A DNA stretch of 64,000 nucleotides from Bdellovibrionales bacterium (GTDB taxonomy: Bacteria > Bdellovibrionota > Bdellovibrionia > Bdellovibrionales > UBA1609). The stretch lies in the NCBI GenBank assembly GCA_965219095.1, contig CBDCMT010000001.1:1056001-1120000 (forward strand), given 5' to 3'. A program made the position numbers and the translations under genes. Under the pieces are notes generated by a model. That model was given only the letters and a program-made list of their open reading frames with translations. It did no database searches and was not told where the DNA came from. This document shows, in pieces, positions 56-64,000 of this stretch. Position 1 is the first letter of the stretch, and every line of letters begins with the position of its first letter.

Positions 56-469
56 ATGAGAATGAAAAGACAAAAGCAGGAAAATCTTCTAGAGGTTTTT
101 AAAGGAAAACTTTTGCAAGCACAAAAGCAATTAGAGAAAGAGCGACGTAAAGGAGCTTTGAAAGTTCTAAGACTTATAGAGGAGAGTGTTAATCATTTAG
201 CTCAAAACAGAAGTTTTTCCACTTCCTTTCGTCATCGCCTAACACTTGATCAAAGAATTTCTATGTGTTCTTTGAAAATACAAAAAATCTTATCTCCTGA
301 ATTAGAAAAAATAAATGAAAAGTGGGAGGCTTTAGCTTTTGCTCCAGAAGATTCTGTTTTAGAAAATCAAAGTAGCAAGGAAGATTTGGTACAATTAGCT
401 CATCAAACCTGGGCTGTCTTAGAGAAGTCTTTTGAAGTTAAAAGAGAGGAAATAAACTATGGTGCTTAA
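56..469 (+). CDS. hypothetical protein (may start upstream of the called ATG)
   Basis: 137-aa ORF overlapping the start of the next gene; no recognisable motif. Confidence 0.6.
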   Translation: MRMKRQKQENLLEVFKGKLLQAQKQLEKERRKGALKVLRLIEESVNHLAQNRSFSTSFRHRLTLDQRISMCSLKIQKILSPELEKINEKWEALAFAPEDSVLENQSSKEDLVQLAHQTWAVLEKSFEVKREEINYGA

Positions 470-11351: not shown

Positions 11352-11594
11352 TTGTAAAAAACTTCATAAAGCATCTATGAAAAGGTATGCAAGAGAAAAC
11401 AGCTCTCCATTTACAAAAAAGACATTTTTTTTCATACGGTCACAGAACTGTCTAGATCACCAAGGCTGTCTTTCTGACACTAACTCTTTTTTTATTGATT
11501 GTCTATAATCTATTCCTATTATTCGTCTATTTTAACTCTCTGGGCTTTAAGAGCATAAAAATTAAGAAAGAAGCATTTCATGGCGAGTGGAATT

Positions 11595-11788
11595 ATAAAA
11601 TACTATCCCACTAAAAGTGTCTAAGTTATTTTTTAACAGTTACTTACTGGCTTTAGAGAGATTAACGTTGAGAACGGAGTTACACGATTTAGTTTACCCA
11701 TTTTATGGAGTTGGTGGAGTATCACATTTTAACGTTCCATTAGGTTCAAAACCCTTTACAAATTTACCTGGGGCACAGTCTCCTCCCT
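11595..11788. repeat. left copy of a long direct repeat (target duplication) flanking IS1634
   Basis: identical to 16726-16928 except for one 9-bp unit; abuts the left TIR exactly. Confidence 0.92.
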
Positions 11789-13173
11789 CCTGACTTCGAC
11801 ACAACACAGTGAGTTAAAAAAAAATATTTCCGTTCTTTTGCCTCTAGTTTTTAGTTGAAGGAGTTATACACAGGTTTTAGGTTGTTTCTGTGGCCCCGGC
11901 CCATTTTACAAGTTTGCAAAAGTTGTTTAGCCTTTTTAAAGAATGTTTGTAAAAGTAACATCAAAGTCTAAGGGTAAAAAAAGTGTACGGATTGTAGAGT
12001 CTGTTTGGCTTAAGGGGAAGTGTGTACAAAAGACCATTCGTTCTATGGGTATTTTTGCAAGCGATAAGGAAGTTAAAAAAGCTAAGAAGTTAGCAGAAGA
12101 GTTGATCATAGACATTAAGAATCAAAGAAATCCTGTGCTTCCAGGTTGTGAGAAGCTAGTTTATGGTAGAAGGCCTAAGGAGAAGAAGAAAGAGAAGAAA
12201 AGAAAGAGTGAGAAAGATTTCCAGTTTTCAGGCAGTATTTTAGAGGAGAAAAAGCGTGTTGTTTGTGGTATTGAGAAAGTTTTTAATGAGCTTTATGCTG
12301 AGTTAGGTTTTGGAAATTTGATTGAGGGTACAAAGAAAGATTTAGAGTGGAATGATATTTTAAAGCACTGTGTTTTATCAAGAGTTTTTAATCCAGAATC
12401 AAAAAGAGGTAGTGTAGAAACACTTTTTGAAGATTTTAACCGACAGATTCCTTTAGAGAAAGTTTATAGGGCTATGGATCGGTTTCATCCTTTCATTGAG
12501 ACATCGAAGAAAAAGGTATCTGAGAACACGAGGATGTCCCATTTCTCGGTGGAATTAGTTAGAGGGCGATTTCATGTTTAAGCGACCTTTCTTTGTTTAA
12601 CAATGAGGTGGATGTTTTGCTTTATGATGTGACGACCTTGTATTTTGAGAGCTTCTCAGAGGATGAGATTCGCAGGTTTGGTTTTAGTAAAGATTGTAAA
12701 TTTAAAGAGACACAGGTTGTTTTGGCACTTATGACAAACTCACAAGGCCATCCTATAAGCTATGAACTTTTTCCGGGCAATACAAGTGAGGGGGCTACAC
12801 TGGTAGAGTCTATAAATAAGCTAAAGACTCGTTTTAATGTAAGAAGAGCTGTTTTAGTAGCTGATAGAGCTATGTTTGTAAGAAAGAATTTAGAGACTAT
12901 GGATAAGATGGGGATAGAGTATGTTGTGGCTGCAAAGTTAAAATCCCTTTCTAGCAAGAAAAAAGAAGAGGTTTTAAGTTATAAAAACTATAAGCCCACC
13001 CAAGTGGCTTGTGATACATCTCATCTTTTTTGGGTGAAAGAGCTAGAGCATGAAGGAAAAAGATTGATAGTCAGTTATTCAAACAAAAGAGCCAAAAGAG
13101 ATCAAAATCAAAGAGAGCGTTTGATCAATCGTTTGATGAAGAAAGTAAGAAACAAGGAGATTCCTGTGAGTCA

Positions 13174-16123
13174 TACCATTTCCAAAAATTAATTCGACAT
13201 TCTTTTAACGCATAGCGTCCTGGCTTTTTGATCAAACTCTGTTAAATTTTTAGAGTGTCGAAAAAAGATTTAGTTACACAAATTCAAGGGTATGATTTTC
13301 TAGCTACTTACAAAGTAGAAAGGTAACTGCTCACTCTCGTAAGTTTTTATTTAAAGCCATAGAGATGGCTTCTAAAGAAGAATACCCTCTATTTCTCATT
13401 GTTTTAACATAGCTGGTAATACGACAAAAATATTTCGCCATTTCTTCTGTTCTGAAACACCCTGACACTTTCTTTTTCACTTTAGTCATTCTTAGATCTC
13501 TTTCAGCTCTGTTATTAGTAGGATCTACGTTCTTTCTTTTAGCAAAGCACAGTATTTCTGCTTCATACTTTTTAAATCGCAGCCAAAGGTTTTGAGCTTG
13601 TGTATGCTTTATTCGTCCTTTCTTGCCATTTTTCTTAGGAAATTCTGGAAGCTCTTTTAAGCCTTTTGTAAGAATACTCCTATACCTTCTCTGAAGAGTT
13701 TCGTACTCTTTTTGAGTCAGAACTCTTGACTCTTTTTTATGAACTAACTCCACAGTCTCTTTAAGAAGTTTTTTGAGATTTGTAGCCCATTTGAATCCAT
13801 TGCTTTCTTCTATAAATTTAAGCTCTCTCAAAAGGTGAGCCACACACAAAGCATGAGTTATCTTATCATAACAAAAGTAAGGACTCCAACAATCATGCAC
13901 AAGCACTCCTGCATATCTATCCAAGAGACCAATATCTTTTATGGCTTCCCTTCCACCTGAAAGGTGGAGAAACTGCAAGACTAATTCTCCTGAACTATAA
14001 GTATGAATCCAGTAGTTTTTACCCTTAACCCTCATAGAGGTCTCATCAACATGAATGACCTCTGATTCAAGTATCTTTTCTTTCATCTGCTCTTCCCAAC
14101 TTTTAAGAAACTCTCCTAATTCAGCAATGTATCTCAACATAACTGCAGGAGAAATCATTCGACCTATAAGCCCCATGTAATGTTCCCCAACACGCTCTAA
14201 AAGACAGCATCTGAACTATAATGAAATTGATGATGGAAGCTCTAATGCCTACACCATACTGAAGAGGACCACTCATACCTTTAGGGAATTGACCTTTATT
14301 TCTAGCTCCACATGAGGGACAATCCTTAACCTCAGAAGTTACAGTATGGGTCTGAATTTCATAAAAAATATCAATCTTTTTACGCTTCTCAAGGCTTTTT
14401 ACCTCTGCTGTCTTTAAAAACATCCCACACTGAGAACACTCTGAGGGAGAGACAGTCTCCTCACTGTTTGTATCTTTACTGTTATCAAGTCTAGAACCCT
14501 TTTTCTGACTCCCACTAGCTTTCTTATTACGATTCCCTTGACGACTAAAATCTTGCGAAGGAGGAAGACCGCTGTTGCTGGAATTTTTTCGAACCTGTTT
14601 TTCTAAAAACACAACAATCAGAATGTTCACAACCTTAAAGAGAGATTCAACAATCACAGAAATCTCAGTAGGCACAGAACCTTTCTTTGCAAACTTATCA
14701 AAGTCACTTCTTATATTTTTAATCTCATTTCTGATGGAGGTCTTATTTATTGTCATTTGAAAAAAGTATTTAAAAGAAAATCTGTAAGAGCAAGACTTTT
14801 ATCTTAAAACAGGTCTAAAGTTAGGGATAACTGAACAATGTAGGTGAGCAGTTACGTAGAAAGAAGTGCCAACATCAAGATAAAACTCCAAGCTTTGCAG
14901 CATATGCAAGAAGGAAAATCGATTCAAGAAACAGCAAGTATAGTTTTCTATCACCGTCACAGTATCAAATCCTGGTTACAGTCTTTTTTTGTAGACTTTG
15001 ATTACGAGGGATTGATAGATCGAGAAGGCAGAGGGCGCAAGCCTCGTTTACCAGTGACAGAAGAAGAGAACTTCAAAATCAAGTTAGATGAAATTCAAGA
15101 CAAGAGAGAAGGAGGAAGCATAGGAGCAAAGGGAATACAGGAACTTTTAGCAAATGAATTTGACTGTTGCTATTCTCTTTCTGGGGTTTATGTTTCTTTA
15201 GACCGTCTTAATATTGTATGGATCAGTGGTCGTTCTCTTCATCCTAAAAGTTCACAAGAAGCTATGGAACAGTTTAAGGAACATTTTCCAGAAGAGGTGG
15301 AGAAAATAAAGGAAAAGATTCAGACTAATAAAATAGAGATTTGGTGGCAGGATGAATGCAGAATAAGCTCAGCAAGGTTCTTTAAGCAGGATTTGGGCAA
15401 GAAAAGGCACACGGCCTAGAGTTGTGAGGCAAAGACAATTTTTATCCACTTATATTTTTGGAGCAGTTTGTCCGGATAGAGATAAAGGCTGTGCTTGGAT
15501 CTTACCGGAATGTAATTCAGGGATGATGCAAATTCACTTAGATGAGATATCTAAAAATATTCAAGAAAACTATCATGGAATTGTTTTAATGGACAGAGCC
15601 AGTTGGCATACCACAGAGACTTTGATAGTTCCTAAGAATTTATCCCTGATGCCTTTACCTCCTTATAGTCCAGAATTAAATCCCATGGAACAAGTCTGGC
15701 AACAATTACGAAGGATCAAATTATCGAATGCATGTTTTAAAAACTATGACCATATAGTGAATACTTGTTGTGAGGCCTGGAATACTTTTTGCGATCAGGA
15801 GGGCAGGATTAAAAAATTATGCACTCGATCTTGGGCAAAACAACAAGATGAATCAAGCTTGTAAATTAATTTGAACCTATAAATTAAATTGCGTAACTGA
15901 TTTTTTTCATTTTACATCTTAACCTCACTTTTTTACACTTATTTTAACCCATCAATCGATTCACACAACAATAGATATACATAAAATAAACATATCTTAT
16001 GAAAACTCAACCTCCCTTCAAAAAAAACTTTTTTAAAGCCTCCTAATTGAAACTTTTCCTTAAGTCAATTTTAAAATTTTAAATTTGAACATAAAAATGT
16101 CGAATTAATTTCTGTAATTGGTA
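13174..16123 (+). mobile_element. IS630-family element A (frameshifted) nested in IS1634
   Basis: TIRs TACCATTTCCAAAAATTAATTCGACATT / AATGTCGAATTAATTTCTGTAATTGGTA; near-identical to 35856-37260; flanked by TCA/TCA. Confidence 0.93.
13323..14855 (-). mobile_element. IS66-family element (single TnpC-type ORF, frameshifted) nested in IS630
   Basis: GTAACTGCTCAC TIRs; 8-bp TSD GTAGAAAG (13315-13322 / 14856-14863); HVDET, VHDCW, TNNRAER motifs; ORF split near 14200. Confidence 0.93.
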
Positions 16124-52355: not shown

Positions 52356-53480
52356 TGTAATAGACGTTATATGATCTGACAGTTACCCTTTCTGGGTTGA
52401 TAAAAAACTGTCTGTCAGTTTTCGTTCTGTTCAATCATCTTTTGCCTTACTTTTTGTTTTCCGTCAAGGAAAGTTTCCATAGGTGTTCGACCACAACACA
52501 TTTTTCCCTGATGAGTTCTCCTTTCATTATATTTTACAAGCCACAAGTCAAGGTCAGACTGCAACTCTTCTATGCTTTTGTACACTTTTTTTCTAAACTC
52601 CACTTGATAAAACTCCTCTAAAATTGTTCTATGAAATCTTTCACAGATGCCATTGGTTTGAGGATGTCTTGCCTTTGTTTTTGTGTGTTCTATATTGTTG
52701 ATAGCCAAATAAAGCTCATAATCGTGACGATCTTGAACTCCACAGAACTCTGTACCCCTATTTGTTAACATACGAAGCAGGGACACATCATGGTCTTCAA
52801 AGAAAGGGAACACTCTATCATTGAGAAGGTCAGCTGCTGTGATAGGTGTTTTCGTTTTATAGAGCTTACAGAAAGCAACTTTTGAGTAAGTGTCCACAAA
52901 GGTTTGTTGATAAAGACGTCCTACACCTTTCATAGTTCCCACATAAAAAGTGTCCTGTGAGCCTAAATAACCAGGATGAGCTGTCTCTACCTCTCCGCAC
53001 TCTAAATCCTCTTGTTTCTTCTTCTCTAGGGCTTGTAACTGCTCCTCTGTGAAAACCAAGCCTTCCTCTGCAGACTTCTTTTCTAAAGCTTTCAAACGCT
53101 TTTTGAAAGTCTCTAAATTATTTCTTAGCCAGACCCCTCTAACTCCTGCAGGAGAAATAAAAATTCCTTTTTTCCTTAACTCATTGGACGCTCTCAACTG
53201 TCCATAGGCAGGAAGTTCTATAGCGATCCTTAAACAAGCCTCTTCTGTCGTTTGATCAACTCTGTTTTTTAAATTAGGCTTTCTACGACTTTGCTCTCTT
53301 AATGATTCTAAACCTCCTTCCTCTTTGAGTGTCTTGTAACGATAAAATGTATCTCTTGAAAAGCCCATCACCTTACAAGCTTGAGATACATTGCCTAACT
53401 CTTCTGCTAATTGCAAAAGACCTACTTTTGATTTTATAATTCTTTCTTTTACCTCCATTTTATGGAGACTTTAAGAGAAA
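52356..53480 (-). mobile_element. IS481-family element; left end lost, probably inactive
   Basis: terminus TGTAATAGACG; ORF 52415-53458 with QDTF, HPQTNGICERF; second catalytic Asp appears mutated (LTNRGTEF). Confidence 0.88.
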
Positions 53481-53506
53481 ATTGACTGTCCGCAGAAACA
53501 GGGGAA

Positions 53507-54477
53507 GTTCAATTCCCTAAAGGTATGAGTGGTCCTCTTCAGTATGGTGTAGGCATTAGAGCTTCCATCATCAATTTCATTATAGTTCAGATGCTGTCTT
53601 TTCAACGTGTTGGGGAACATTACATGGGGCTTATAGGTCGAATGATTTCTCCTGCAGTTATGTTGAGATACATTGCTGAATTAGGAGAGTTTCTTAAAAG
53701 TTGGGAAGAGCAGATGAAAGAAAAGATACTTGAATCAGAGGTCATTCATGTTGATGAGACCTCTATGAGGGTTAAGGGTAAAAACTACTGGATTCATACT
53801 TATAGTTCAGGAGAATTAGTCTTGCAGTTTCTACACCTTTCAGGTGGAAGGGAAGCCATAAAAGATATTGGTCTCTTGGATAGATATACAGGAGTGCTTG
53901 TGCATGATTGTTGGAGTCCTTACTTTTGTTATGATAAGATAACTCATGCTTTGTGTGTGGCTCACCTTTTGAGAGAGCTTAAATTTATAGAAGAAAGCAA
54001 TGGATTCAAATGGGCTACAAATCTCAAAAAACTTCTTAAAGAGACTGTGGAGTTAGTTCATAAAAAAGAGTCAAGAGTTCTGACTCAAAAAGAGTACGAA
54101 ACTCTTCAGAGAAGGTATAGGAGTATTCTTACAAAAGGCTTAAAAGAGCTTCCAGAATTTCCTAAGAAAAATGGCAAGAAAGGACGAATAAAGCATACAC
54201 AAGCTCAAAACCTTTGGCTGCGATTTAAAAAGTATGAAGCAGAAATACTGTGCTTTGCTAAAAGAAAGAACGTAGATCCTACTAATAACAGAGCTGAAAG
54301 AGATCTAAGAATGACTAAAGTGAAAAAGAAAGTGTCAGGGTGTTTCAGAACAGAAGAAATGGCGAAATATTTTTGTCGCATTACCAGCTATGTTAAAACA
54401 ATGAGAAATAAAGGGTATTCTTCTTTAGAAGCCATCTCTATGGCTTTAAATAAAAACTTACGAGAGTGAGCAGTTAC
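53507..54477 (+). mobile_element. IS66 copy, 5' truncated
   Basis: near-identical to the reverse complement of 13323-14290; ends GTGAGCAGTTAC. Confidence 0.9.
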
Positions 54478-54627
54478 AATTAAACATCTTAGACCTCCTT
54501 GTATGTTTTTTGCAACTCTCAAGGTGTTTTTCCTTGTAAGTTGCTTCTTCAAGAAAATCTTACAAAGGTCTGAGGTGTTTGTTGATATCAGCTAGCCTTT
54601 AGCCCTGAAAAAAGTCGAAACTCGGGT
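54478..54627 (-). mobile_element. IS982 left-end remnant
   Basis: reverse complement of the ACCCGAGTTTCGACTTTT terminus and leader of the 55879-57761 element. Confidence 0.8.
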
Positions 54628-54662
54628 TATTATATCTTATATCACAGCATTGGAAAACTGAC

Positions 54663-54699
54663 AGAACCTCCGGGAATCCACAGATTCTTTTGAAGAGGC
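54663..54699 (-). repeat. 48-bp palindromic repeat, partial diverged copy
   Basis: AGAACCTCCGGGAATCCACAGATTCTTTTGAAGAGGC. Confidence 0.8.
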
Positions 54700-54721
54700 A
54701 AAAACTTTAGTTGTGCTCTCT

Positions 54722-54760
54722 AAAAAGAGAGGCTGAAACCAAATTCCAGCCTCTCTTTTT
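54722..54760 (-). terminator. intrinsic (bidirectional-type) terminator
   Basis: AAAAAGAGAGGCTG-loop-CAGCCTCTCTTTTT, about 20 bp after the stop of 54782-55624. Confidence 0.75.
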
Positions 54761-54781
54761 AAGTGTGATAGTTGTGTTGTT

Positions 54782-55624
54782 TTAATCTTCCCAAGAGTTA
54801 ACACCATAAACATCAGAGGTTTGACCATTGTCATTTGTAAATTGAACAATATAAGTACCCCTAAAAACAGAAATAAAAGTCTCTTTCTTTTCTATATCAT
54901 AAGTGTGACTAACAGCATGTCGTCCCTTTGAAAACCAGAAAAAACTAGAGTTTTCACCATCAAAAGAAAAATATGGAACTTCATAACTTCCATCTTCATT
55001 AAATCTTATCATTTTAGCATATTCATCAAGGTTTTTTGATGCGTTATATTTACACATAGTTTTTGTATCAGGACTGTAATTCCCATATAAATTACACCAT
55101 CTAATACTGCTTTTATTATAAGAATTTATATAAATATCTCTGATTATCAAATCTTGCATTTTCTTGTTAGTAAGATCCAAATAAAGAGAGTATTTTTGAC
55201 CTTGAGAATTGATCTTAATTGTGTCAAGATCGATATCAATTAGAGTTTCTTCTTTCACTTCAATAAATTGCCTTGTGGTACTATAAATTAAGGCATAAAG
55301 CCCTTTTTTAAGAGACACCTCTTTGTTTAATTCTTTTTTTGTTAAGTAATGGCAACTATATTTTTTGGGAACCTCGAGAGTTCCTTCACAGGCAAAGATA
55401 CCATATTCAGAATCTTGCCCTTCTCCTGGAACGCCATTAACCCTTAAAATCCCTTCTGTATTTTTAGGAGGAGTTACTGCTAAGGGTGAAGCCTCCAGAG
55501 AGTGATGTGATTGTTCTAGTGAAGCTTGTAAAGTTAAGCTCTGAACTTCTCCTTCCACGACGTCTCCATAAGAAAGTCCTCCTAAAGACATCAAAAATAA
55601 AAATGTTAGTATTAGTTTTTTCAT
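54782..55624 (-). CDS. secreted protein of unknown function
   Basis: MKKLILTFLFLMSLGGLSYG signal peptide; AGGAGG RBS; two Cys pairs. Confidence 0.75.
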   Translation of the reverse strand: MKKLILTFLFLMSLGGLSYGDVVEGEVQSLTLQASLEQSHHSLEASPLAVTPPKNTEGILRVNGVPGEGQDSEYGIFACEGTLEVPKKYSCHYLTKKELNKEVSLKKGLYALIYSTTRQFIEVKEETLIDIDLDTIKINSQGQKYSLYLDLTNKKMQDLIIRDIYINSYNKSSIRWCNLYGNYSPDTKTMCKYNASKNLDEYAKMIRFNEDGSYEVPYFSFDGENSSFFWFSKGRHAVSHTYDIEKKETFISVFRGTYIVQFTNDNGQTSDVYGVNSWED

Positions 55625-55878
55625 AACGTAAAATCCCTCCTTTTCTAATGTTTTTTCGTTATTTTGTTTCTTAAGTCCTATTTTCTAACCTACATAATAA
55701 AGGAAAAGACTCTTATCCTTTGTTAAAAGCATACCTTGTATGAAAAAAAAAAGAAGAGATAACTTTTTGCGTTATGATTCTTATTTCGGGGTGGTAAAGG
55801 GTTTTAAGCTAAAGTTTAAAAAATACAGTTAAACAAAGACTATTTATTTTTCTACTTTTTTAAATCTTAAAGTTAATA

Positions 55879-57761
55879 ACCCGAGTTTCGACTTTTTTCC
55901 TGACTTCGACACAACACACTGCAATAAGTGAATAATTTCAAATAGTTACAATTTTTGGGGCCACAGGAAAGGGTAACTGTCAGATCATATAACGTCTATT
56001 ACAGTTAAACAAAGACAAGGTGTTCTCAGATACCTTTTTCTTCGAGGTCTCAATAAAAGGATAAAAACGATCCATAGCCCTATAAACTTTCTCTAAAGGA
56101 ATCTGTCGGTTAAAATCTTCAAAAAGTGTTTCTACACTACCTCTTTTTGATTCTGGATTAAAAACTCTTGATAAAACACAGTGCTTTAAAATATCATTCC
56201 ACTCTAAATCTTTCTTTGTACCCTCAATCAAATTTACAAAACCTAACTCAGCATAAAGCTCATTAAAAACTTTCTCAATACCACAAACAACACGCTTTTT
56301 CTCCTCTAAAATACTGCCTGAAAACTGGAAATCTTTCTCACTCTTTTTTTTCTTCTCTTTCTTCTTCTCCTTAGGCCTTCTACCATAAACTAGCTTCTCA
56401 CAACCTGGAAGCACAGGATTTCTTTGATTCTTAATGTCTATGATCAACTCTTCTGCTAACTTCTTAGCTTTTTTAACTTCCTTATCGTTTGCAAAAATAC
56501 CCATAGAACGAATGGTCTTTTGTACGCACTTCCCCTTAAGCCAAACAGACTCTACAATCCGTACACTTTTTTTACCTTTAGACTTTGATGTTACTTTTAC
56601 AAACATTCTTTAAAAAGGCTAAACAACTTTTGCAAACTTGTAAAATGGACCGGGGCCACAGAAACAACCTAAAACCTGTGTATAACTCCTTCAACTAAAA
56701 GCTAGAACCAAAAGAACGGAAATATTTTTTTTTAACTCACTGTGTTGTGTCGAAGTCAGGACTTTTTTCAGGTCTAAAGGCTAGCTGATATAAACAAACA
56801 TCTCAGTTCTTTGATAAGATGTCTTGAAGAAGCAACTTACAAGGAGGTCTAAGATGTTTAATTCTAATTCTAATTATATCATATCAATTTATGTTCTTGT
56901 CGATGATTTTTTAACCCCTCTCATACAGCAGCATCCAGAACTAGTTTGCTAAAAATAAAAGAGGTTTTTCTTGTGCTATGTCTTCCAGCGAAATTATCAC
57001 TCTTTGCTTACTTTTCCAAAGTTCTGTCTTTAGGAATTTTAAAGCCTTTTATCAGTTTGCAGAAGTCTATCTTAAACCTTATTTTCCTAAAATGTTGTCT
57101 TACTCCCGATTTGTGAACATAAAAAAAGACATGGCTTTTTTGATGTTTCTTTTCTCGACAAGCCTTATGAGTAAAACCACCGGCATATCATTTATTGATT
57201 CCACATCGATTTTTCTTCAAAAATAAAAGAATAGGACGAAATAAGGTGTTTCAAAAGTTAGCTAAAAAAAGGTAAAAGGAGTCACAGGCTGGTTCTTCGG
57301 ATTTAAACTCCATATTGTTATCAATCACCTAGGAGAGCTTTTAAGTTTTACCTTAACTCCGGGAAATGTAGATGATCGAAAGCTGAGTTATGGATTTATA
57401 GTAAAGGGCTGGTGGGGAAACTCTTTGGAGACAAAGGTTATATTTCATCAGACCTTTTCAAAAAGCTTTTAAAAAAGGGAGTTAAGCTTATTACAAACGT
57501 CAAATTAAATATGGAGAATAAATTGATTCCCTTATTTGACAAGTTGATGTTGAAAAAACGTTCTGTTGTGGAGGTCAGTGATTGGAGTGTTAAAAGGAGA
57601 GTTTCATCTTGAGCATTCTCGCCATCGTAGCCCACAAAACTTTGTCATCAATCTTTTAGGTACTCTCATCTCCTATTGTTTAAAACCTAAAAAACCCTCC
57701 ATTCAACTTAAAACTCAAGAACAGGGGCCTCTGAGCAATATATAAAAGTCGAAACTCGGGT
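55879..57761 (+). mobile_element. IS982-family element, degenerate, carrying IS1634-A in its left end
   Basis: TIR ACCCGAGTTTCGACTTTT; fragments FIDST, GWFFGFKLH, FGDKGY. Confidence 0.85.
55899..56760 (-). mobile_element. IS1634-A, internally deleted copy with an IS481 end inside
   Basis: both 20-bp TIRs; 8-bp TSD ACTTTTTT; 5' third of the transposase; IS481 terminus at about 55968-56003. Confidence 0.9.
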
Positions 57762-58225: not shown

Positions 58226-58377
58226 CAAAAATTTTATAAAAAATATAGTAAAAAAGTTAGTTGAACTTTTTTAATTGTCTTACTGTATAAAAAATGATAA
58301 TAATGATGAAAAAATAATTGCGCTGGGTGTTTCAGTTAGTTTCAGAGGATAAATACGATTTTAAGGAATACAATTTT

Positions 58378-59470
58378 ATGAACTTTAAAACCTTCTTGTT
58401 TGCTTTAAGCTTTTCAGTTTTTTTCTCATTCTCGCAGTCCACTTTTTCACAAACTCATGTGAGTTCAGACCAACTCACCGAAGCTATCAAAGAAGCTCGC
58501 CTCACAAATCCAGAACTTCGGTACATCAAAAACTTAGCTAAAAGAATGGGAGTCCGGGTCTGGCTTTTGGGAGGATCAGCCTCCAGCTTAGCTTACTATG
58601 TGAAAAAGGATCTAGAACGAAAGGAAAATGAGAACAAGGGCTGGTTTAAACCCCAAAAAGAACATTTCGATTACGACTACACAAAGATCTTTTTTCCCAC
58701 TCAGGATATAGATTTAGTCGTAGAAGGGGGGTCAGAGGAAAAAGTCTCAAGGCTAGAAGAAGAAATCTCTAAAAAGTTTCCCTACTTTCAAGGAAATAGC
58801 AATAAAAGTGCTTGGGAGGTAAGGCCTTTAAGAGAATCAAGAGGTCCAAAGGCACCTTTATTGGAAGGAGATGTATTAAAACAGCATACCGATTCTTATT
58901 CTGTGATGATGATAGAACTGAGCGAATCTAAAGATCCTGTAGTAAGAAGCATCAAGGAGTGGGATTCCAGAAACCCTTCCCTTTTAGAAGATCTTCTAAA
59001 AGGAGAAATAAGCTATTATGATTCAAAAAATCATAAAGAAACTCAAAGGTACAACGAGGGTATGAATCCTGAGATCTTTTCAGTCATCCGTTATTTGATT
59101 AAAATGTTTCAGTATGAACTAAAGCCTAAAAAAGAAGATTTAGAAAGGATTAAAGAAATTATAAATGAATTTTCAGCTTCAGAATTAAAAACAGGTTATG
59201 CGAAGTTCTGGTGGGAGATGAATGTAAGAAAATTATTTATGCAAAATTCTGATCTAGAGAGAACTTGGAGAGTGCTTGATGAATTAGGTTTAAAAGAAAA
59301 GCTCATAAGCCTGGGAGGAAATAAATGGGAAAAAGGAAGTCTTACTTTTTGGCTTCATAAAGAACCTTTAAGAACTAAGAAAATAGGAGAAGGAGAAGGA
59401 AGGACAGCTAAGGATCTGGGAATAGAGATCGTATCTCATGAAACAAGTGATTTCGAAGCTTATGAAATTA
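58378..59470 (+). pseudogene. signal-peptide-bearing nucleotidyltransferase (CCA/poly(A) polymerase-like), 3' truncated
   Basis: MNFKTFLFALSFSVFFSF signal; VWLLGGSA and DIDLVV motifs; frame runs into the palindromic repeat at 59471. Confidence 0.6.
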
Positions 59471-59518
59471 GCCTCCTCAAAAGAATCTGTGGGTTCCCGG
59501 AGGTTCTTTTGAGGAGGC
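59471..59518. repeat. 48-bp palindromic repeat, full copy
   Basis: identical to 35744-35791. Confidence 0.9.
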
Positions 59519-59742
59519 AAATTTAATTGCTTGCTGATCTCTCGCAAAAGATGCACCCCCCCAACACCTACAGAACTTATAGGATGTTTGTTCAACTTGG
59601 CTTCAAGCTTCCCCGTAGATTGATTCTTCTTGCCCAAATAAACTCTTCTCTGACGAGATTGTTTTTTTTCTTTGTCCCAGTAACTGCTTATCTCATACAC
59701 ATAGATGCTTCCATTTCTTTTCTCTTCATACCTATAAGACAT
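59519..59742 (-). pseudogene. N-terminal fragment of a third IS1634-type transposase
   Basis: GSIYVYE..SYWDKEKKQSRQRRVYLGK; truncated at the palindrome; TTGACA and a palindrome upstream. Confidence 0.7.
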
Positions 59743-60489
59743 AGTTCAAATTGAACTATGTTTTAGGGGCTTTGTCAACTCCCTGTTGATGACTCAAAAC
59801 TCTTAACGACAGGATCAAATTTCAATCCAAAAACAGAGCCTATGAAAAACATAGCTTTAAAAAGACCTATAAAAATAGTGTGTTATAAGTTCTCCAGAAA
59901 AACTCAATGAGACTAAATTAACTCGTTCTTATGATTTATCAGGAGTATTCTGTTGAAAAAAAACAGGCTCTTAGTCCTGAAACCTAGTATCAAAATTAAC
60001 AGATTTCAGGAAGCATAGGCAAGAGTATTTATCTCTAAAAATTCTATAAAATCCTACTTTTTACAAGGGGGAATAAGAAATTTTCCAGATTCTGAGCAGA
60101 ACTTAAATCCTAGTGTATATTTTTTGTCGGGAATTTAGGTCATTAGTATTTAAGAATCAAGGCAAAATACTTTCGTTGTTGCTTAATGGAAGTTCGATAC
60201 ATCCAAAGTACTGAAACGACTATTTTATCTTTAAAAAAAGATTTCTGACACTACAAACTTACTTTCTGGAAAAATGCCCTCCACTTCTATTTTAAACATA
60301 GCTTACGTACTTTTATGTAGTATTAGTAGTAGAAAACGCTGAAGTCGGGTTTAAACTGAGTTTTTTTTATGATTTTTAGTGGGAAAATTGTAGTACCAGT
60401 TTTTTAATCACTCTGTGCAAGAATTTGCTTCCCATGCAGACTTTTTTAAGTGAACGAACTATCATAGGAAAGCTTTTTTGAAGATACTG

Positions 60490-63400
60490 CTAAAAAATTT
60501 TGTTACAGACTCCTCCTCCTACACCATTTATAATATTATTAATTTTTTCTTCATTGAGCGCACCTTCCTTTAAAAGAGCTTGAGTAAAAGCTTCTACTGT
60601 TTCCTTTTTTTCATCTAAAATTTTATTAGCTACTTCTTCCGCCTCTTGAAATATTTCTGATCGAAAGTTCTTAAAATTCTTTTTCTTTCTCCATGAAGAG
60701 TTCCCTGCAGCACCAGACTCATAGAATTTCTTTGTGACCTTTTGAGCTTTTTCGTAATCATTAGACATTCCTGTATCATAAGGATAACCAGCTCTCTTTT
60801 GGCTGATTCCTCCAGCTAAAAGTTGAGCTACTAGTATGACAAGAGCCTCTCTATCAAGATTTAATTTAGGAATAGAAGAGTTTTCCTCTTCATATCGTGC
60901 ATAACCTGCAACATCACCTCCAGGAATGATAGTAAGATAAACTAATTTTTGGCCTGTTATGTGGGGATCATTGAGAACAGCATGCCCTGCTTCATGATAA
61001 GCTACTATTTTAGCCTCTTTTTTTCCGAGTAGTATCTTCTTTGTAGCATTCTGAGTTACGTCTAATGTTTCTTGGAAAAGCTTTGTGTTTTTAGAAGAAA
61101 CTTCTGCTGTAAAACTTACTTTTCTTTTAAAGTCTTTACCTTCGACATAAAAGGTTTTAGGAAGATTATCTTCCAAAGATAAGGTGATTGTAATAGAATC
61201 ATTTTGTTTATTTTCCTGGGTTAATCTAAATCGAGCTTGAGTAATAAGAGACTTGATTTGTTGGTCAACAACATTTTTCAAACTCCGGCCCCCTTGGCCT
61301 TGAGTAAAGAAGACTTCTGAAAAGGAATTTAAAAATTCCTTACTATAATTGATTTTGCCTCCCCATTTTTCAGTTTCTTTTTTAATAGGTTCTAAGAACT
61401 TTTCAACAATGACATTTACTTCGCTTGTTAATAAAGGCTTGTAAAGAGCAATGAGAGACATCCTGCTTAAGAAAGCTTCTGGAACCCCTGCCTCTAAGAG
61501 AAGCTTTCTTAATTGCTCTGTCTCTTTAGCCTCTTCCCAAATAGCTAAGCGCAGGTCCTCGTGGCTGACACCTTGAAAAATCTTTTCTCCATCATTTCCT
61601 GTAAAAATAAATGTATATTTTGATAGGTTATAAGTTTGATCTGTTACATTGGAAGTCCATTTTCCCTCATCGGTTAAGTTATAAAAATGTTTCATTATAG
61701 TTTCTTTTAAGTGCTTATCATAGCCTCCTGCATTAGAAGCTTCATCAAACACAATAACGCCACCAGTTGGATTGTTTCTCAGAGCTCGCTCAAAAAGACT
61801 TTCCCTATCTGAGCCTGCAAATCCTTTGGGGGAGCCAAAAATATCGTTCATTTGTCCTGTGTACGTTATGTTTGAAAGAGGTATAATGACAGCTCGCTCT
61901 TCACTTCCGTGAAAAATCTTAGCTATAACACGTGCTGTTTCTGTCTTTCCTGTACCTGTGCTTCCTAAAAGAAAGAAACTTAGAGGCTTCTTATTATTTG
62001 TGAAGCTTTTATGAGCTAAAATAGCTTGGCTTATCTTCTCAGCAAGCTCATCCTGACCTATAAGACTTTTTGTAAAGATCTCTTTAAAATGAATCAGCTT
62101 ATTTATGAATTCTTGGTTCTCAAAAACATCTTTAAATTTCTTTTTAGGAGCTGATGAAAGAATCTCATCTCCTCCTTTCTTTCTCTTAGATGAAACTTTA
62201 ACCTGACTTCCTTTTTCTAAAAGGCTGATCTGAATTACTTCCTGATCCTTTAAACTCCATTGAGAGCGAAAGTTGACGATAGCTTCTCCAATGTATTTTT
62301 CTAGATTTTTGATAACAATACGTACACCGTTTTGTGGATTAAAAACATTTTTCACAAGATATTCTATTAATTTATCATCAATCTCTAATTTTATTTTAAA
62401 AGTTTTTTCTGTATCTTTGATTATTTGATCAGCCTTTTTTCTTGCAATTCTCAATGCTAAATTTAAATCAATAGGATTAGCAATGATATAAGAATCCACT
62501 CTTTCAAGAATAAGGTTAGGGAGTTGAGCTGTGTCAAGTCCGTTAACTTTTTCCCTAAAGATATTTTTTATCATAGAGGGATTGTCTTTAAGAAGAGTTA
62601 TATGTTCATTCCACTCTCTTTCGGTCCAGTTTTTCATCCCTTTAGGAAATAAGACATTATCTCCTCGGTTGCTTGTTAAAAGAATAATGACGTTGTTCGC
62701 CTTTCTTATCTTCCCATCAGCACCTGTAATCGTTCCTGTATCGAAAAATTCCATAAATTTTTCCCAAAAATCTTTATGAGCTCTCTCTGCTTCATCTATA
62801 ATAATAATACCTCCTTTGCCTCCACGAGCTGGATCATCTAACCAATTCATAAGCTCTCCTGAAGTTTTATCAGAAGATATAACTCCCGGTGGTGCTCCCA
62901 ATAAAGCATTAAGAGAGAGGCTTCCATCTTTATATGTGTTGGCGTCAATATGCATCACTGGATTGTTTGCAGAAGGGAAAGCTAATTGAGTAAACTCTTT
63001 AGCAACCATGGTCTTTCCTACTCCTGTGGAACCTAGTAAAAGACCTACCCTGATTCTACGTTCTTTATCCTGGATGTTCTGAAGCCATAAATTAACAATA
63101 TCATTGATCATATGACTCTGACCGAGAACTTCTTCATTTAACTTCTTTTTTAAATCATCAGCATACTTTGCAAATCTTACCCCATCTCTAGGATCAGCAG
63201 GTAGATCATATCTTTTAATTAAAAAATCTGAAAAATCTTGCTTTGTAATAGAGACAGTCTTCTTATTTTCCCCTTTCCTTCTTTGAACAAAAATAGCTAA
63301 GTCCATAAGAGCTTTTATTGAAGCACTCACTCTTCCATTATCCGGAACAATAAATAGTGATTCCTCCACAACTCTCCTAATGACTTCATTGTCTTCGAAT

Positions 63401-64000
63401 TCAACCTGATATTTTCCTTCTATTTTGGGAATCCAAGAAAACTTTAAAAGCTCCATGACCTCTTCAACATTGAACTCAGGCACTGCAACCTTTTCAAAAC
63501 GACGTTTAATAGCATCGTTGTCTTTAAATTTAGCCATAAATTCTTTTGAGGTTGTCGCTCCTATAAAATGAATGCCGTTACGCTCAGAATCTAAAAAAGG
63601 CTTCAAAGATTCAACTTGAGATTTACTTAATGTATGGACTTCATCTAAAAATACAATGATGGGTTTTTTTGTAGCTTCTTGAATGGCAAGTACAGCTTTA
63701 AAATAATCTTCTATAGCAGCGGCTTGTGCAGAGGAGCTATCCGACAAAGCTATTTTAGAAATACGAGCTGGTGATGTAGAAAGCAGTTCAGCTTTTCTTA
63801 AATAATCATAAAAACTCAGATCAGGGAATTCTTTGTCTATGATCATTTGTGTTATCTTTTCAACAACAGTGGTTTTTCCAGAACCTGCCGGACCGATAAG
63901 AATGGGGTTTTTTCCTTTCAACCTCACAAGAATGTCAATTGTATGATTAGCTTCCTCATTTCTTCTATAAATAGTACGCTCAGGAGAATTTCTTTGGATA
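60490..64000 (-). CDS. Clp-like protein with three AAA+ modules and a C-terminal FtsH-type (M41) metalloprotease domain; 5' end beyond the window
   Basis: Walker A GPAGSGKT, GSTGVGKT, GSTGTGKT; Walker B FLDE, IIDE, VFDE; AYHEAGHA and GMSND; frame open to the window edge. Confidence 0.85.
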   Translation of the reverse strand, partial: IQRNSPERTIYRRNEEANHTIDILVRLKGKNPILIGPAGSGKTTVVEKITQMIIDKEFPDLSFYDYLRKAELLSTSPARISKIALSDSSSAQAAAIEDYFKAVLAIQEATKKPIIVFLDEVHTLSKSQVESLKPFLDSERNGIHFIGATTSKEFMAKFKDNDAIKRRFEKVAVPEFNVEEVMELLKFSWIPKIEGKYQVEFEDNEVIRRVVEESLFIVPDNGRVSASIKALMDLAIFVQRRKGENKKTVSITKQDFSDFLIKRYDLPADPRDGVRFAKYADDLKKKLNEEVLGQSHMINDIVNLWLQNIQDKERRIRVGLLLGSTGVGKTMVAKEFTQLAFPSANNPVMHIDANTYKDGSLSLNALLGAPPGVISSDKTSGELMNWLDDPARGGKGGIIIIDEAERAHKDFWEKFMEFFDTGTITGADGKIRKANNVIILLTSNRGDNVLFPKGMKNWTEREWNEHITLLKDNPSMIKNIFREKVNGLDTAQLPNLILERVDSYIIANPIDLNLALRIARKKADQIIKDTEKTFKIKLEIDDKLIEYLVKNVFNPQNGVRIVIKNLEKYIGEAIVNFRSQWSLKDQEVIQISLLEKGSQVKVSSKRKKGGDEILSSAPKKKFKDVFENQEFINKLIHFKEIFTKSLIGQDELAEKISQAILAHKSFTNNKKPLSFFLLGSTGTGKTETARVIAKIFHGSEERAVIIPLSNITYTGQMNDIFGSPKGFAGSDRESLFERALRNNPTGGVIVFDEASNAGGYDKHLKETIMKHFYNLTDEGKWTSNVTDQTYNLSKYTFIFTGNDGEKIFQGVSHEDLRLAIWEEAKETEQLRKLLLEAGVPEAFLSRMSLIALYKPLLTSEVNVIVEKFLEPIKKETEKWGGKINYSKEFLNSFSEVFFTQGQGGRSLKNVVDQQIKSLITQARFRLTQENKQNDSITITLSLEDNLPKTFYVEGKDFKRKVSFTAEVSSKNTKLFQETLDVTQNATKKILLGKKEAKIVAYHEAGHAVLNDPHITGQKLVYLTIIPGGDVAGYARYEEENSSIPKLNLDREALVILVAQLLAGGISQKRAGYPYDTGMSNDYEKAQKVTKKFYESGAAGNSSWRKKKNFKNFRSEIFQEAEEVANKILDEKKETVEAFTQALLKEGALNEEKINNIINGVGGGVCNKIF

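Follow-up and report, generated by a model that had tools for sequence, protein, structure and literature searches.

To our knowledge, the ATP-dependent proteases of bacteria (Clp, Lon, FtsH, and HslUV) all work in the cytoplasm, with one motor ring or two. Plasmodium HSP101 (of PTEX), Skd3/CLPB, and torsin act outside the cytosol, in eukaryotic compartments that contain ATP, and we know of no fused protease in any of them. The periplasm, for its part, is without ATP. The gene described here, from a Bdellovibrionales genome, encodes Clp-type motors and an FtsH-type zinc protease in one chain behind a predicted export signal.

The gene was found at the edge of the window (the whole stretch of DNA analysed, 64,000 nucleotides), where its minus-strand reading frame is still open. 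Traced in the genome, the frame continues for 596 bases and occupies G000:C2:1116490-1120596(-), encoding 1368 amino acids. Residues 200-1368 and the stop codon lie within the window (60490..64000, minus strand); residues 1-199, comprising the predicted signal peptide and the N-domain, lie beyond its end (to G000:C2 1120596). The domain order is a predicted Sec signal peptide, a helical N-domain, a Clp D1 module, two Clp D2 modules, an FtsH-type M41 domain, and a terminal CNKIF. Pfam places AAA (three stretches), AAA_2, ClpB_D2-small (two stretches), and Peptidase_M41 in this one protein, and together with alignment supports the D1-D2-D2-M41 order that a sequence-only reading had described as one NBD1-like and two NBD2-like modules. 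All 14 motifs quoted in that reading fall in the single minus-strand frame, in the order it gave. In full-length numbering, Walker A motifs are at residues 235, 522, and 878, Walker B motifs at 316, 600, and 950, HEAGH at 1201, GMSND at 1276, and CNKIF, the C-terminus it had named, at 1364-1368.

The concern that this architecture might come from a chimeric assembly or frameshift fusion is removed by 18 other near-full-length homologues (31–43% identity across 88–99% of the query) and by an independently assembled contig of 4727 bases that spans 60111-64000 with 0 differences, from a run that may be the window's source sample. There is likewise no sign of recent foreign acquisition (gene GC3 0.254 vs. 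genome median 0.269, sd 0.034), and promoter and terminator scans gave chance-level results only. ClpA, ClpB, FtsH, and ClpP are encoded separately in the same genome. The protein belongs to an unnamed family of at least about 150 clusters at 50% identity, and the family statistics below refer to 150 representatives at that threshold.

The protease domain (residues ~1186-1360; 60517..61041, minus strand) carries its zinc site at His1201, Glu1202, His1205, and Asp1280. Its Peptidase_M41 match has an E-value of 2.3e-13 (50.9 bits vs. a cut-off of 29.9); the last 186 residues match FtsH chains of the PDB (E 3e-10), with both HExxH and the Asp motif of the third ligand in register; and the predicted fold aligns with FtsH protease domain 2di4_B (Z 15.9, rmsd 3.2, 153 residues aligned). 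Profile, PDB-sequence, and fold searches thus agree on the M41 assignment first made from motifs in the last ~180 residues. Across the family the site is kept almost without exception (His 148, Glu 148, His 148, and Asp 147 of 150). A phage origin was considered and rejected, as the match in 39 viral loci was confined to the M41 part (zinc-motif pattern used).

Directly upstream lies module 3, a D2-type AAA+ motor with a D2-small domain (residues ~835-1180; 61057..62094, minus strand). A model of this motor with M41 reached a pLDDT of 90.2, and the predicted motor fold is close to ClpB NBD2 (Z 25.6). The Walker A Lys is found in 146 of 150 representatives (the other four are gaps), the Walker B Asp in 144 and Glu in 148, the sensor-1 Asn in 149, the trans-acting Arg finger in 150, and the sensor-2 Arg in 117. 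Walker A of this motor and HExxH are 305–350 residues apart in the 141 proteins measured (imposed window 280–380). The motor adjoining the protease is therefore, like the zinc site, nearly invariant, and the constant core of the family, as read from its sequences, is one D2 motor plus M41. An IGF-like loop for ClpP docking, searched with a loose pattern, occurs in 1/150 motor-3 modules and 9/132 module-2 modules.

The upstream modules vary more in number and detail. Module 1 (D1-type; residues ~195-470; 63187..64000, minus strand), aligned to the ClpA and ClpB of the genome, has intact Walker A, Walker B, and Arg fingers; its pore-loop Tyr is absent, and an aromatic residue occupies the D1 pore loop in only 8 of 65 family members. 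In motor 3 the pore residue is Phe926 here, with Tyr or Phe in only 58/150 representatives and His in 15. In both modules the pore residues fall short of what a strong unfoldase would be expected to have. Module 2 (D2-type; residues ~478-805; 62182..63165, minus strand) has a canonical Asp-Glu Walker B in this protein and Asn-Glu in 102/132 relatives. Three modules are present in only 63/150 representatives, and only 7 of these 63, this protein included, have an intact Walker A Lys and an intact Walker B Asp-Glu in every module. The proposed three-tier unfoldase-protease thus fits this protein in its module count and does not hold as a family trait.

How the modules would be arranged bears on the layout only and is compatible with any of the readings discussed below. 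Modules 2 and 3 might share rings instead of forming separate stacked tiers, sitting next to each other in alternation, with one of them firing and the other regulatory. In favour are their common D2 type, the Glu, sensor-1, Arg-finger, and sensor-2 residues that module 2 retains despite its frequent Walker B Asn, the repeated origin of tandem motor-3 duplications (quick, unrooted tree), and the fact that ClpX rings function when covalently linked. We consider this layout quite unlikely, because the D1 Arg fingers are kept (51/65 and 48/65), suggesting a six-chain D1 ring, and the D1-D2 Walker A spacing is ClpA-like (287 here vs. 277 in ClpA and 402 in ClpB; 262–296 in the family, n = 51, search window 250–330).

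Residues 1-26, upstream of the window, form a predicted Sec/SPase I signal peptide, in keeping with the export that the sequence-only reading had suggested. Signal peptides were called with a custom heuristic applied to family statistics with controls, not with SignalP; one version of it also flagged 284 of 1032 ORFs of the same genome and 3 of 11 Clp/FtsH controls (FtsH TM1, one ClpB, and one ClpA). By this heuristic the family has the Sec/SPase I traits of a positive n-region, a short h-region, and an A-x-A site. A hydrophobic N-terminal core is present in 100 of 122 representatives (at least 900 residues, starting with Met); many of the remaining 22 look N-truncated by eye. Directly after the core, 76/100 have an A-x-A-like site, compared with 23, 16, and 24 in control windows and 3/59 in polytopic membrane proteins. 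Net positive charge precedes the core in 95% of 97 members, and none of the 122 has an internal TM segment by the same heuristic. Tat export was rejected (no twin-Arg motif in 97 members), as was lipoprotein export (lipobox-like sequence in only 4/97). The N-domain that follows (residues 27-194) is possibly HEAT-like: weak HEAT_2 matches occur in 4 of 10 family N-domains, the best (E 3.6e-4) below cut-off, and none in that of this protein. Clp_N gave no match at E ≤ 1 in any of the 10.

If the hydrophobic stretch were instead an uncleaved reverse anchor, the enzyme would lie on the cytoplasmic side of the producer's membrane and add to its housekeeping proteases in the manner of FtsH. That would solve the ATP problem directly, and AAA+M41 clusters do occur in other phyla and phages (Atlas). 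We regard it as very improbable given that the charge bias indicates an N-in/C-out orientation, A-x-A sites are rare in membrane anchors, the best 19-residue hydropathy has a median of 1.9 in the family vs. 2.25 in such anchors, and the genome already has an FtsH.

At the other end of the protein, CNKIF (60493..60507, minus strand) belongs to a C-x-x-x-hydrophobic tag found within the last 25 residues of 134/150 representatives and in 0/150 in three control windows. With the predicted signal peptide removed, Cys1364 would be the protein's sole Cys. Other signal-peptide proteins with nucleotide needs carry the tag as well, namely a partner with a CCA-enzyme fold, an ABC1 kinase (E 2.6e-14), and a CP-ATP-grasp protein (E 3.7e-16). 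Of the 30 scanned neighbours and tagged proteins, 24 lack any Pfam match; among the six with one, an M28 peptidase and an alpha/beta hydrolase do not depend on nucleotides. For tagged protein L066, an amidoligase-like identity suggested by motifs gained no support from the tools.

The tag could hold the enzyme in the producer's periplasm or at its surface through a lipid or disulfide, as an envelope or nutrient-digesting protease using ATP from lysed prey, or nucleotide for assembly only. A Sec signal by itself takes a protein no further than the periplasm, the mature part has a single Cys in 49/97 members, ordinary hydrolases are among the tagged neighbours, and an ATP transport system of intracellular B. 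bacteriovorus has been reported, to judge by a title in the reference list of PMC13689555. This is nevertheless unlikely, as a cytoplasm rich in nucleotides better suits the strictly kept hydrolytic residues of motor 3 and the presence of tRNA-type or NAD-type enzymes among the tagged proteins. A search for an ATP/ADP translocase found no match, and neither did its control.

Convergent to the protease gene lies a gene for the partner (58318..59526, plus strand), interrupted here by an IS near the end of its open frame. The partner family consists of signal-peptide proteins with a CCA-enzyme-like nucleotidyltransferase fold (Foldseek E 2.2e-5; Z 10.8, rmsd 3.7, 202 aligned) and a possible ADP-ribosyltransferase-like domain (weak fold matches, Z 4.1–6.2); its N-terminal part has no Pfam or PDB sequence match. 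The Atlas score of this family (0.86) is a lead only. The association raises the idea that the protease might, in the manner of Plasmodium HSP101 in PTEX, drive the translocation or maturation of other proteins with the Cys tag, unfolding them so that they can cross a membrane, while M41 trims or clears those that jam. Motor 3 does resemble the PTEX chain (Z 24.4, close to ClpA), and the partner lies within two ORFs of the protease gene in 14/37 loci and is fused to it once, in P0019. It is, however, absent from 23/37 loci, and 10 of the 18 genomes with a partner have no full-length protease-family match. No conserved channel gene was seen by eye among neighbours of the listed loci, the protease itself bears the cargo tag, and a fully conserved protease would destroy cargo, so we find such a role decidedly improbable.

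The family is present in 53 of the 301 genomes searched from its phylum (inferred to be Bdellovibrionota). Because it was not found in the other 248, including 0/20 of one well-assembled genus, it is not core to predation in the phylum. A single-sequence scan of genome contigs found no relative, and a literature search found no description of the family. Mis-annotation as ClpA, ClpB, ClpV, or FtsH was rejected, since scores fall far below every NCBIfam cut-off, in line with the expectation that no characterised family has this architecture.

We lean towards an undescribed, self-contained ATP-dependent unfoldase-protease that would leave through Sec and then reach a compartment containing ATP, most probably the interior of prey or of a host. 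Bdellovibrio is described as consuming the cytoplasm of its prey and as secreting enzymes into the prey cell (PMC12546842, PMC13689555). After cleavage of the predicted signal, the C-terminal Cys tag would probably aid passage onward. The protein would form a ring in which the D2 motor next to the protease unfolds substrates and threads them into the M41 zinc sites, as FtsH does, with no need for ClpP. D1 and the upstream D2 may be optional extra tiers that help in assembly, sense nucleotide, or add to the pull, and substrates might be selected by the variable N-domain. No route from the periplasm to the prey cytoplasm, which this second export step would require, came to light, and this counts against the explanation. 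A fuller version, which we offer tentatively and somewhat doubt, is that uncultured Bdellovibrionota deliver the complete enzyme, with up to three stacked AAA+ rings above an FtsH-type chamber, into the cytoplasm of prey or host, where the victim's ATP would power the digestion of folded proteins. The enzyme would then travel by an undescribed route based on Sec and the Cys tag, alongside nucleotidyltransferases, kinases, and ligases.

If exported with up to three motors, the enzyme would be new in architecture and also a novel kind of weapon in predation. Since its members combine one, two, or three motors with the same protease domain, the family lends itself naturally to a direct test of what additional AAA+ tiers contribute. 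The enzyme's presumed need for ATP should also make it a good reporter of the final location of Cys-tagged proteins, a point relevant to how predators like Bdellovibrio gain access to the prey cytoplasm.

Class I Clp/Hsp100 proteins (ClpA, ClpB, ClpC, and ClpV) share with this protein the order D1 then D2, the ClpA-like spacing, and the ClpB NBD2 fold, but it has an extra D2, a fused protease, and a predicted export signal, and lacks the Clp_N domain and the D1 pore Tyr. It also lacks the ClpP-docking IGF/L loop of ClpA and ClpC and the coiled-coil middle domain of ClpB; its best Clp NCBIfam score is 273 bits against a cut-off of 885. The Clp-type D2 fold is shared with HSP101, Skd3/CLPB, and torsin (Z 24.4, 26.8, and 17.1, respectively). 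Uncharacterised fusions of AAA, AAA_2, or ClpB_D2-small with Peptidase_M41 occur in Campylobacterota, Pseudomonadota, Bacillota, and phages, where the Atlas clusters listed (482–943 residues) are too short for three motors. FtsH and the i-AAA and m-AAA proteases (MEROPS M41; TIGR01241) likewise place an AAA+ motor directly upstream of M41 in one chain, with the zinc site in register. In contrast to FtsH (TIGR01241, 51 bits against a cut-off of 600), the motors here are Clp D2-type and number one to three in the family, and the membrane-spanning anchor gives way to a Cys tag and a signal peptide that the heuristic predicts to be cleavable.

The protease gene is a minus-strand ORF of 1368 aa (G000:C2:1116490-1120596, i.e., window position 60490 to a point 596 bases beyond the window) that is still open where the window ends. 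The sequence-only reading had described it as a Clp-like ATPase with three AAA+ modules fused to an M41 zinc protease, and all 14 motifs it quoted were found in the ORF in the order described. Pfam profiles gave three AAA stretches, two ClpB_D2-small stretches, and Peptidase_M41 over its cut-off, and the C-terminal 186 residues match PDB FtsH chains (E 3e-10) with HEAGH in register, as is the GAAND/GMSND ligand motif. In a predicted model of residues 828-1365 (built from 35 sequences; pLDDT 90.2), the N-terminal part matches ClpB NBD2 (Foldseek E 1.9e-19; Z 25.6), and the C-terminal part superposes on the FtsH protease domain 2di4 (Z 15.9, rmsd 3.2 over 153 residues), which upholds the M41 assignment. 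One contig from a public run, possibly the source sample, matches window 60111-64000 without difference. The genome (G000) holds a single copy of the gene and also encodes ClpP as well as ClpA, ClpB, and FtsH, three proteins named by length and motifs. Insertion sequences, many fragmentary, are abundant around the gene (window 52415-57226 and 59368-60330), and their load (IS66, an rve-type integrase family, others) is high genome-wide.

This three-motor M41 protease is real, conserved, and unnamed. A word-indexed search returned 20 matches, including 18 near-full-length homologs besides the query (31-43% identity) and one ClpB-like protein. A profile of the third motor plus M41 was then searched against 1.84 billion representatives; the best 150 matches, on which the counts below are based, have E-values of 4e-135 or better and nearly all cover the whole profile, and the family may be larger than these. 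Among 301 genomes of the phylum, with four candidates scored per genome, 57 matches spanning motor and M41 occur in 53 genomes (G000 included), and none in the 20 genomes of one genus with many closed genomes. Taxon labels at homolog loci indicate Bdellovibrionota-level taxa in 23 of 26 cases, the other three being uninformative, and the organism of the window is probably a member of Bdellovibrionales. The nearest Atlas cluster is a Bdellovibrionota "hypothetical protein" with M41, AAA_2, and D2-small; homologs with public names are mostly called "AAA family ATPase" or "ClpA." Full-text literature searches found no account of the architecture, although supplementary tables or subscription journals may list it, and keyword-matched passages of PMC12419801, PMC8195603, PMC12622784, PMC13689555, PMC12546842, and bioRxiv 10.1101/2022.06.13.496000 do not mention it.

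Residue conservation is strongest in the third motor, with Walker A Lys in 146 of 150 (four gaps), Walker B Asp in 144 and Glu in 148, sensor-1 Asn in 149, and the Arg finger in all 150; sensor 2 is Arg in 117 and Ala in 29, mostly one subfamily, and the pore residue is Tyr or Phe in 58. Zinc-site residues are likewise retained (His 148, Glu 148, His 148, Asp 147). That the protein is a PTEX-like cargo motor is improbable in our judgment. Two representatives, P0102 and P0126, have apparently lost the zinc site and kept the motor residues. Module 2, extractable from 132 representatives, keeps Lys (124), Glu (123), Asn (124), and two Arg (125, 126), with Walker B Asp replaced by Asn in 102. A D1 could be identified in 65 representatives: Lys is kept in 60, Asp in 51, Glu in 48, and the two Arg fingers in 51 and 48, and the pore loop has an aromatic residue in eight. 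The proposed three-tier unfoldase may apply to the protein itself, which has three canonical motors, but does not extend to the family: only 63 of 150 representatives have three modules, and only seven of those, this protein included, have all three canonical. Of the rest, 34 have two modules and a GK[DE] Walker A, another 34, each at least 1000 aa long, are two-module forms of other kinds, and about 19 are fragments or one-motor forms. From these counts and the residue conservation, we infer that the stable unit is one D2 motor plus M41, with upstream tiers and N-domain variable. Tandem duplication of the third motor likely happened more than once, because the upstream modules of representatives P0021 and P0050 fall inside the motor-3 group in a rapid, unrooted tree built from 49 modules. 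In a second subfamily (loci L023-L029, L031-L034), which has two D2 modules, Walker A reads GKD and Walker B Asn-Glu in the first module, and the sensor-2 Arg is often missing from the second; some genomes carry both subfamilies. At another locus, adjoining Clp-type ATPases (L030:7086-10724 and 11370-14135) have signal-like N-termini, and one of them, a D1-D2-D2 protein with all three Walker A motifs intact, lacks an M41 domain.

The suggestion that the protein is exported gained support from the retrieved upstream sequence, where the predicted N-terminus is basic, then hydrophobic, with Ala at the end. Signal peptides and TM segments were scored by in-house heuristics, one version of which had a high false-positive rate. 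For 122 Met-start representatives of 900 aa or longer, these scored a hydrophobic core in 100, an A-x-A-like site directly after it in 76 of the 100 (control windows farther downstream gave 23, 16, and 24, and polytopic membrane proteins 3 of 59), positive net charge before the core in 95% of 97, and an internal TM segment in none of the 122. That the protease is anchored and faces the cytoplasm is the least probable reading we weighed. Searches of full text for periplasmic or secreted bacterial AAA+ proteins, by those phrases, found none.

A C-terminal tag (C-x-x-x-hydrophobic) ends 134 of the 150 representatives and occurs in none of the 150 in three control windows; no description of it was found in full-text literature. 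In G000, tag-like endings occur in signal-like proteins (23 of 447), in other soluble proteins (15 of 1437), and in TM-like proteins (19 of 274, mostly copies of one transposase). A tight form ends 22 ORFs, 14 of them, by eye, signal-peptide proteins or fragments thereof ending C-x-x-[LIVF]-F. Neighbors at five loci (L017, L040, L046, L019, L021) carry the Cys motif C-terminally in some cases and right behind the signal peptide in others, and its position seems not to matter provided it is terminal. The genome encodes three secretins, several T2SS/pilus ATPases, and weak VirB4-like matches, none tied to the tag. PMC12622784 credits B. bacteriovorus with type I, type II, Tat, and Sec systems and describes its secretion as largely unexplored.

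Convergent to the protease gene lies an IS-interrupted copy of a partner family (window 58318-59526, plus strand), of which G000 has about a dozen copies or fragments (G000:C2 227439, 230574, 976500, 1012073, 1850234, and 1968362, plus fragments). A partner homolog lies within two ORFs of the protease gene in 14 of 37 non-redundant loci and is fused to it in representative P0019. The link is partial, because only eight of the 18 partner-bearing genomes (of 301) also have the protease. The predicted model of an intact paralog (pLDDT 76.8) matches CCA-adding enzymes and, weakly, ADP-ribosyltransferase folds (Z 4.1-6.2); the family combines signal peptide, Cys tag, and CCA-enzyme-like fold, possibly with an ADP-ribosyltransferase-like domain. 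Its C-termini vary, some relatives carry an FGE-sulfatase domain, several copies are broken, and first-look candidates reach dozens in some genomes.

Six of 30 tagged or neighboring proteins scanned had Pfam matches (FGE-sulfatase, ABC1 kinase, CP-ATP-grasp, M28, SpoVR+DUF444, alpha/beta hydrolase). Several tagged, signal-bearing proteins, the partner with its CCA-enzyme fold among them, thus need nucleotides, which the periplasm lacks. We regard action in the producer's own envelope as unlikely, if less so than the cargo motor. We lean modestly toward an exported ring protease delivered to a prey or host cell: it would leave through Sec, lose its signal peptide, enter that cell by a second, tag-linked step, and assemble there into a ring, with ATP driving substrates through the third motor into the zinc chamber. 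In such a ring, modules 2 and 3 may be stacked or may alternate. At L048:177-3530, close to a copy of the protease gene that is interrupted, a signal-peptide protein fuses SpoVR to DUF444; both normally act in the cytoplasm as partners of PrkA-type AAA+ proteins. Another signal-peptide, Cys-tagged family (L066, G000:C2:537991-539052), three tandem copies of which adjoin the protease gene at L021:10148-13932, has motifs recalling amidoligases or glutamate-cysteine ligases, a likeness for which Pfam and PDB gave no support.

Like FtsH and Lon, the protein carries motor and protease in a single chain and would work as they do, yet it belongs to neither FtsH nor class I Clp.
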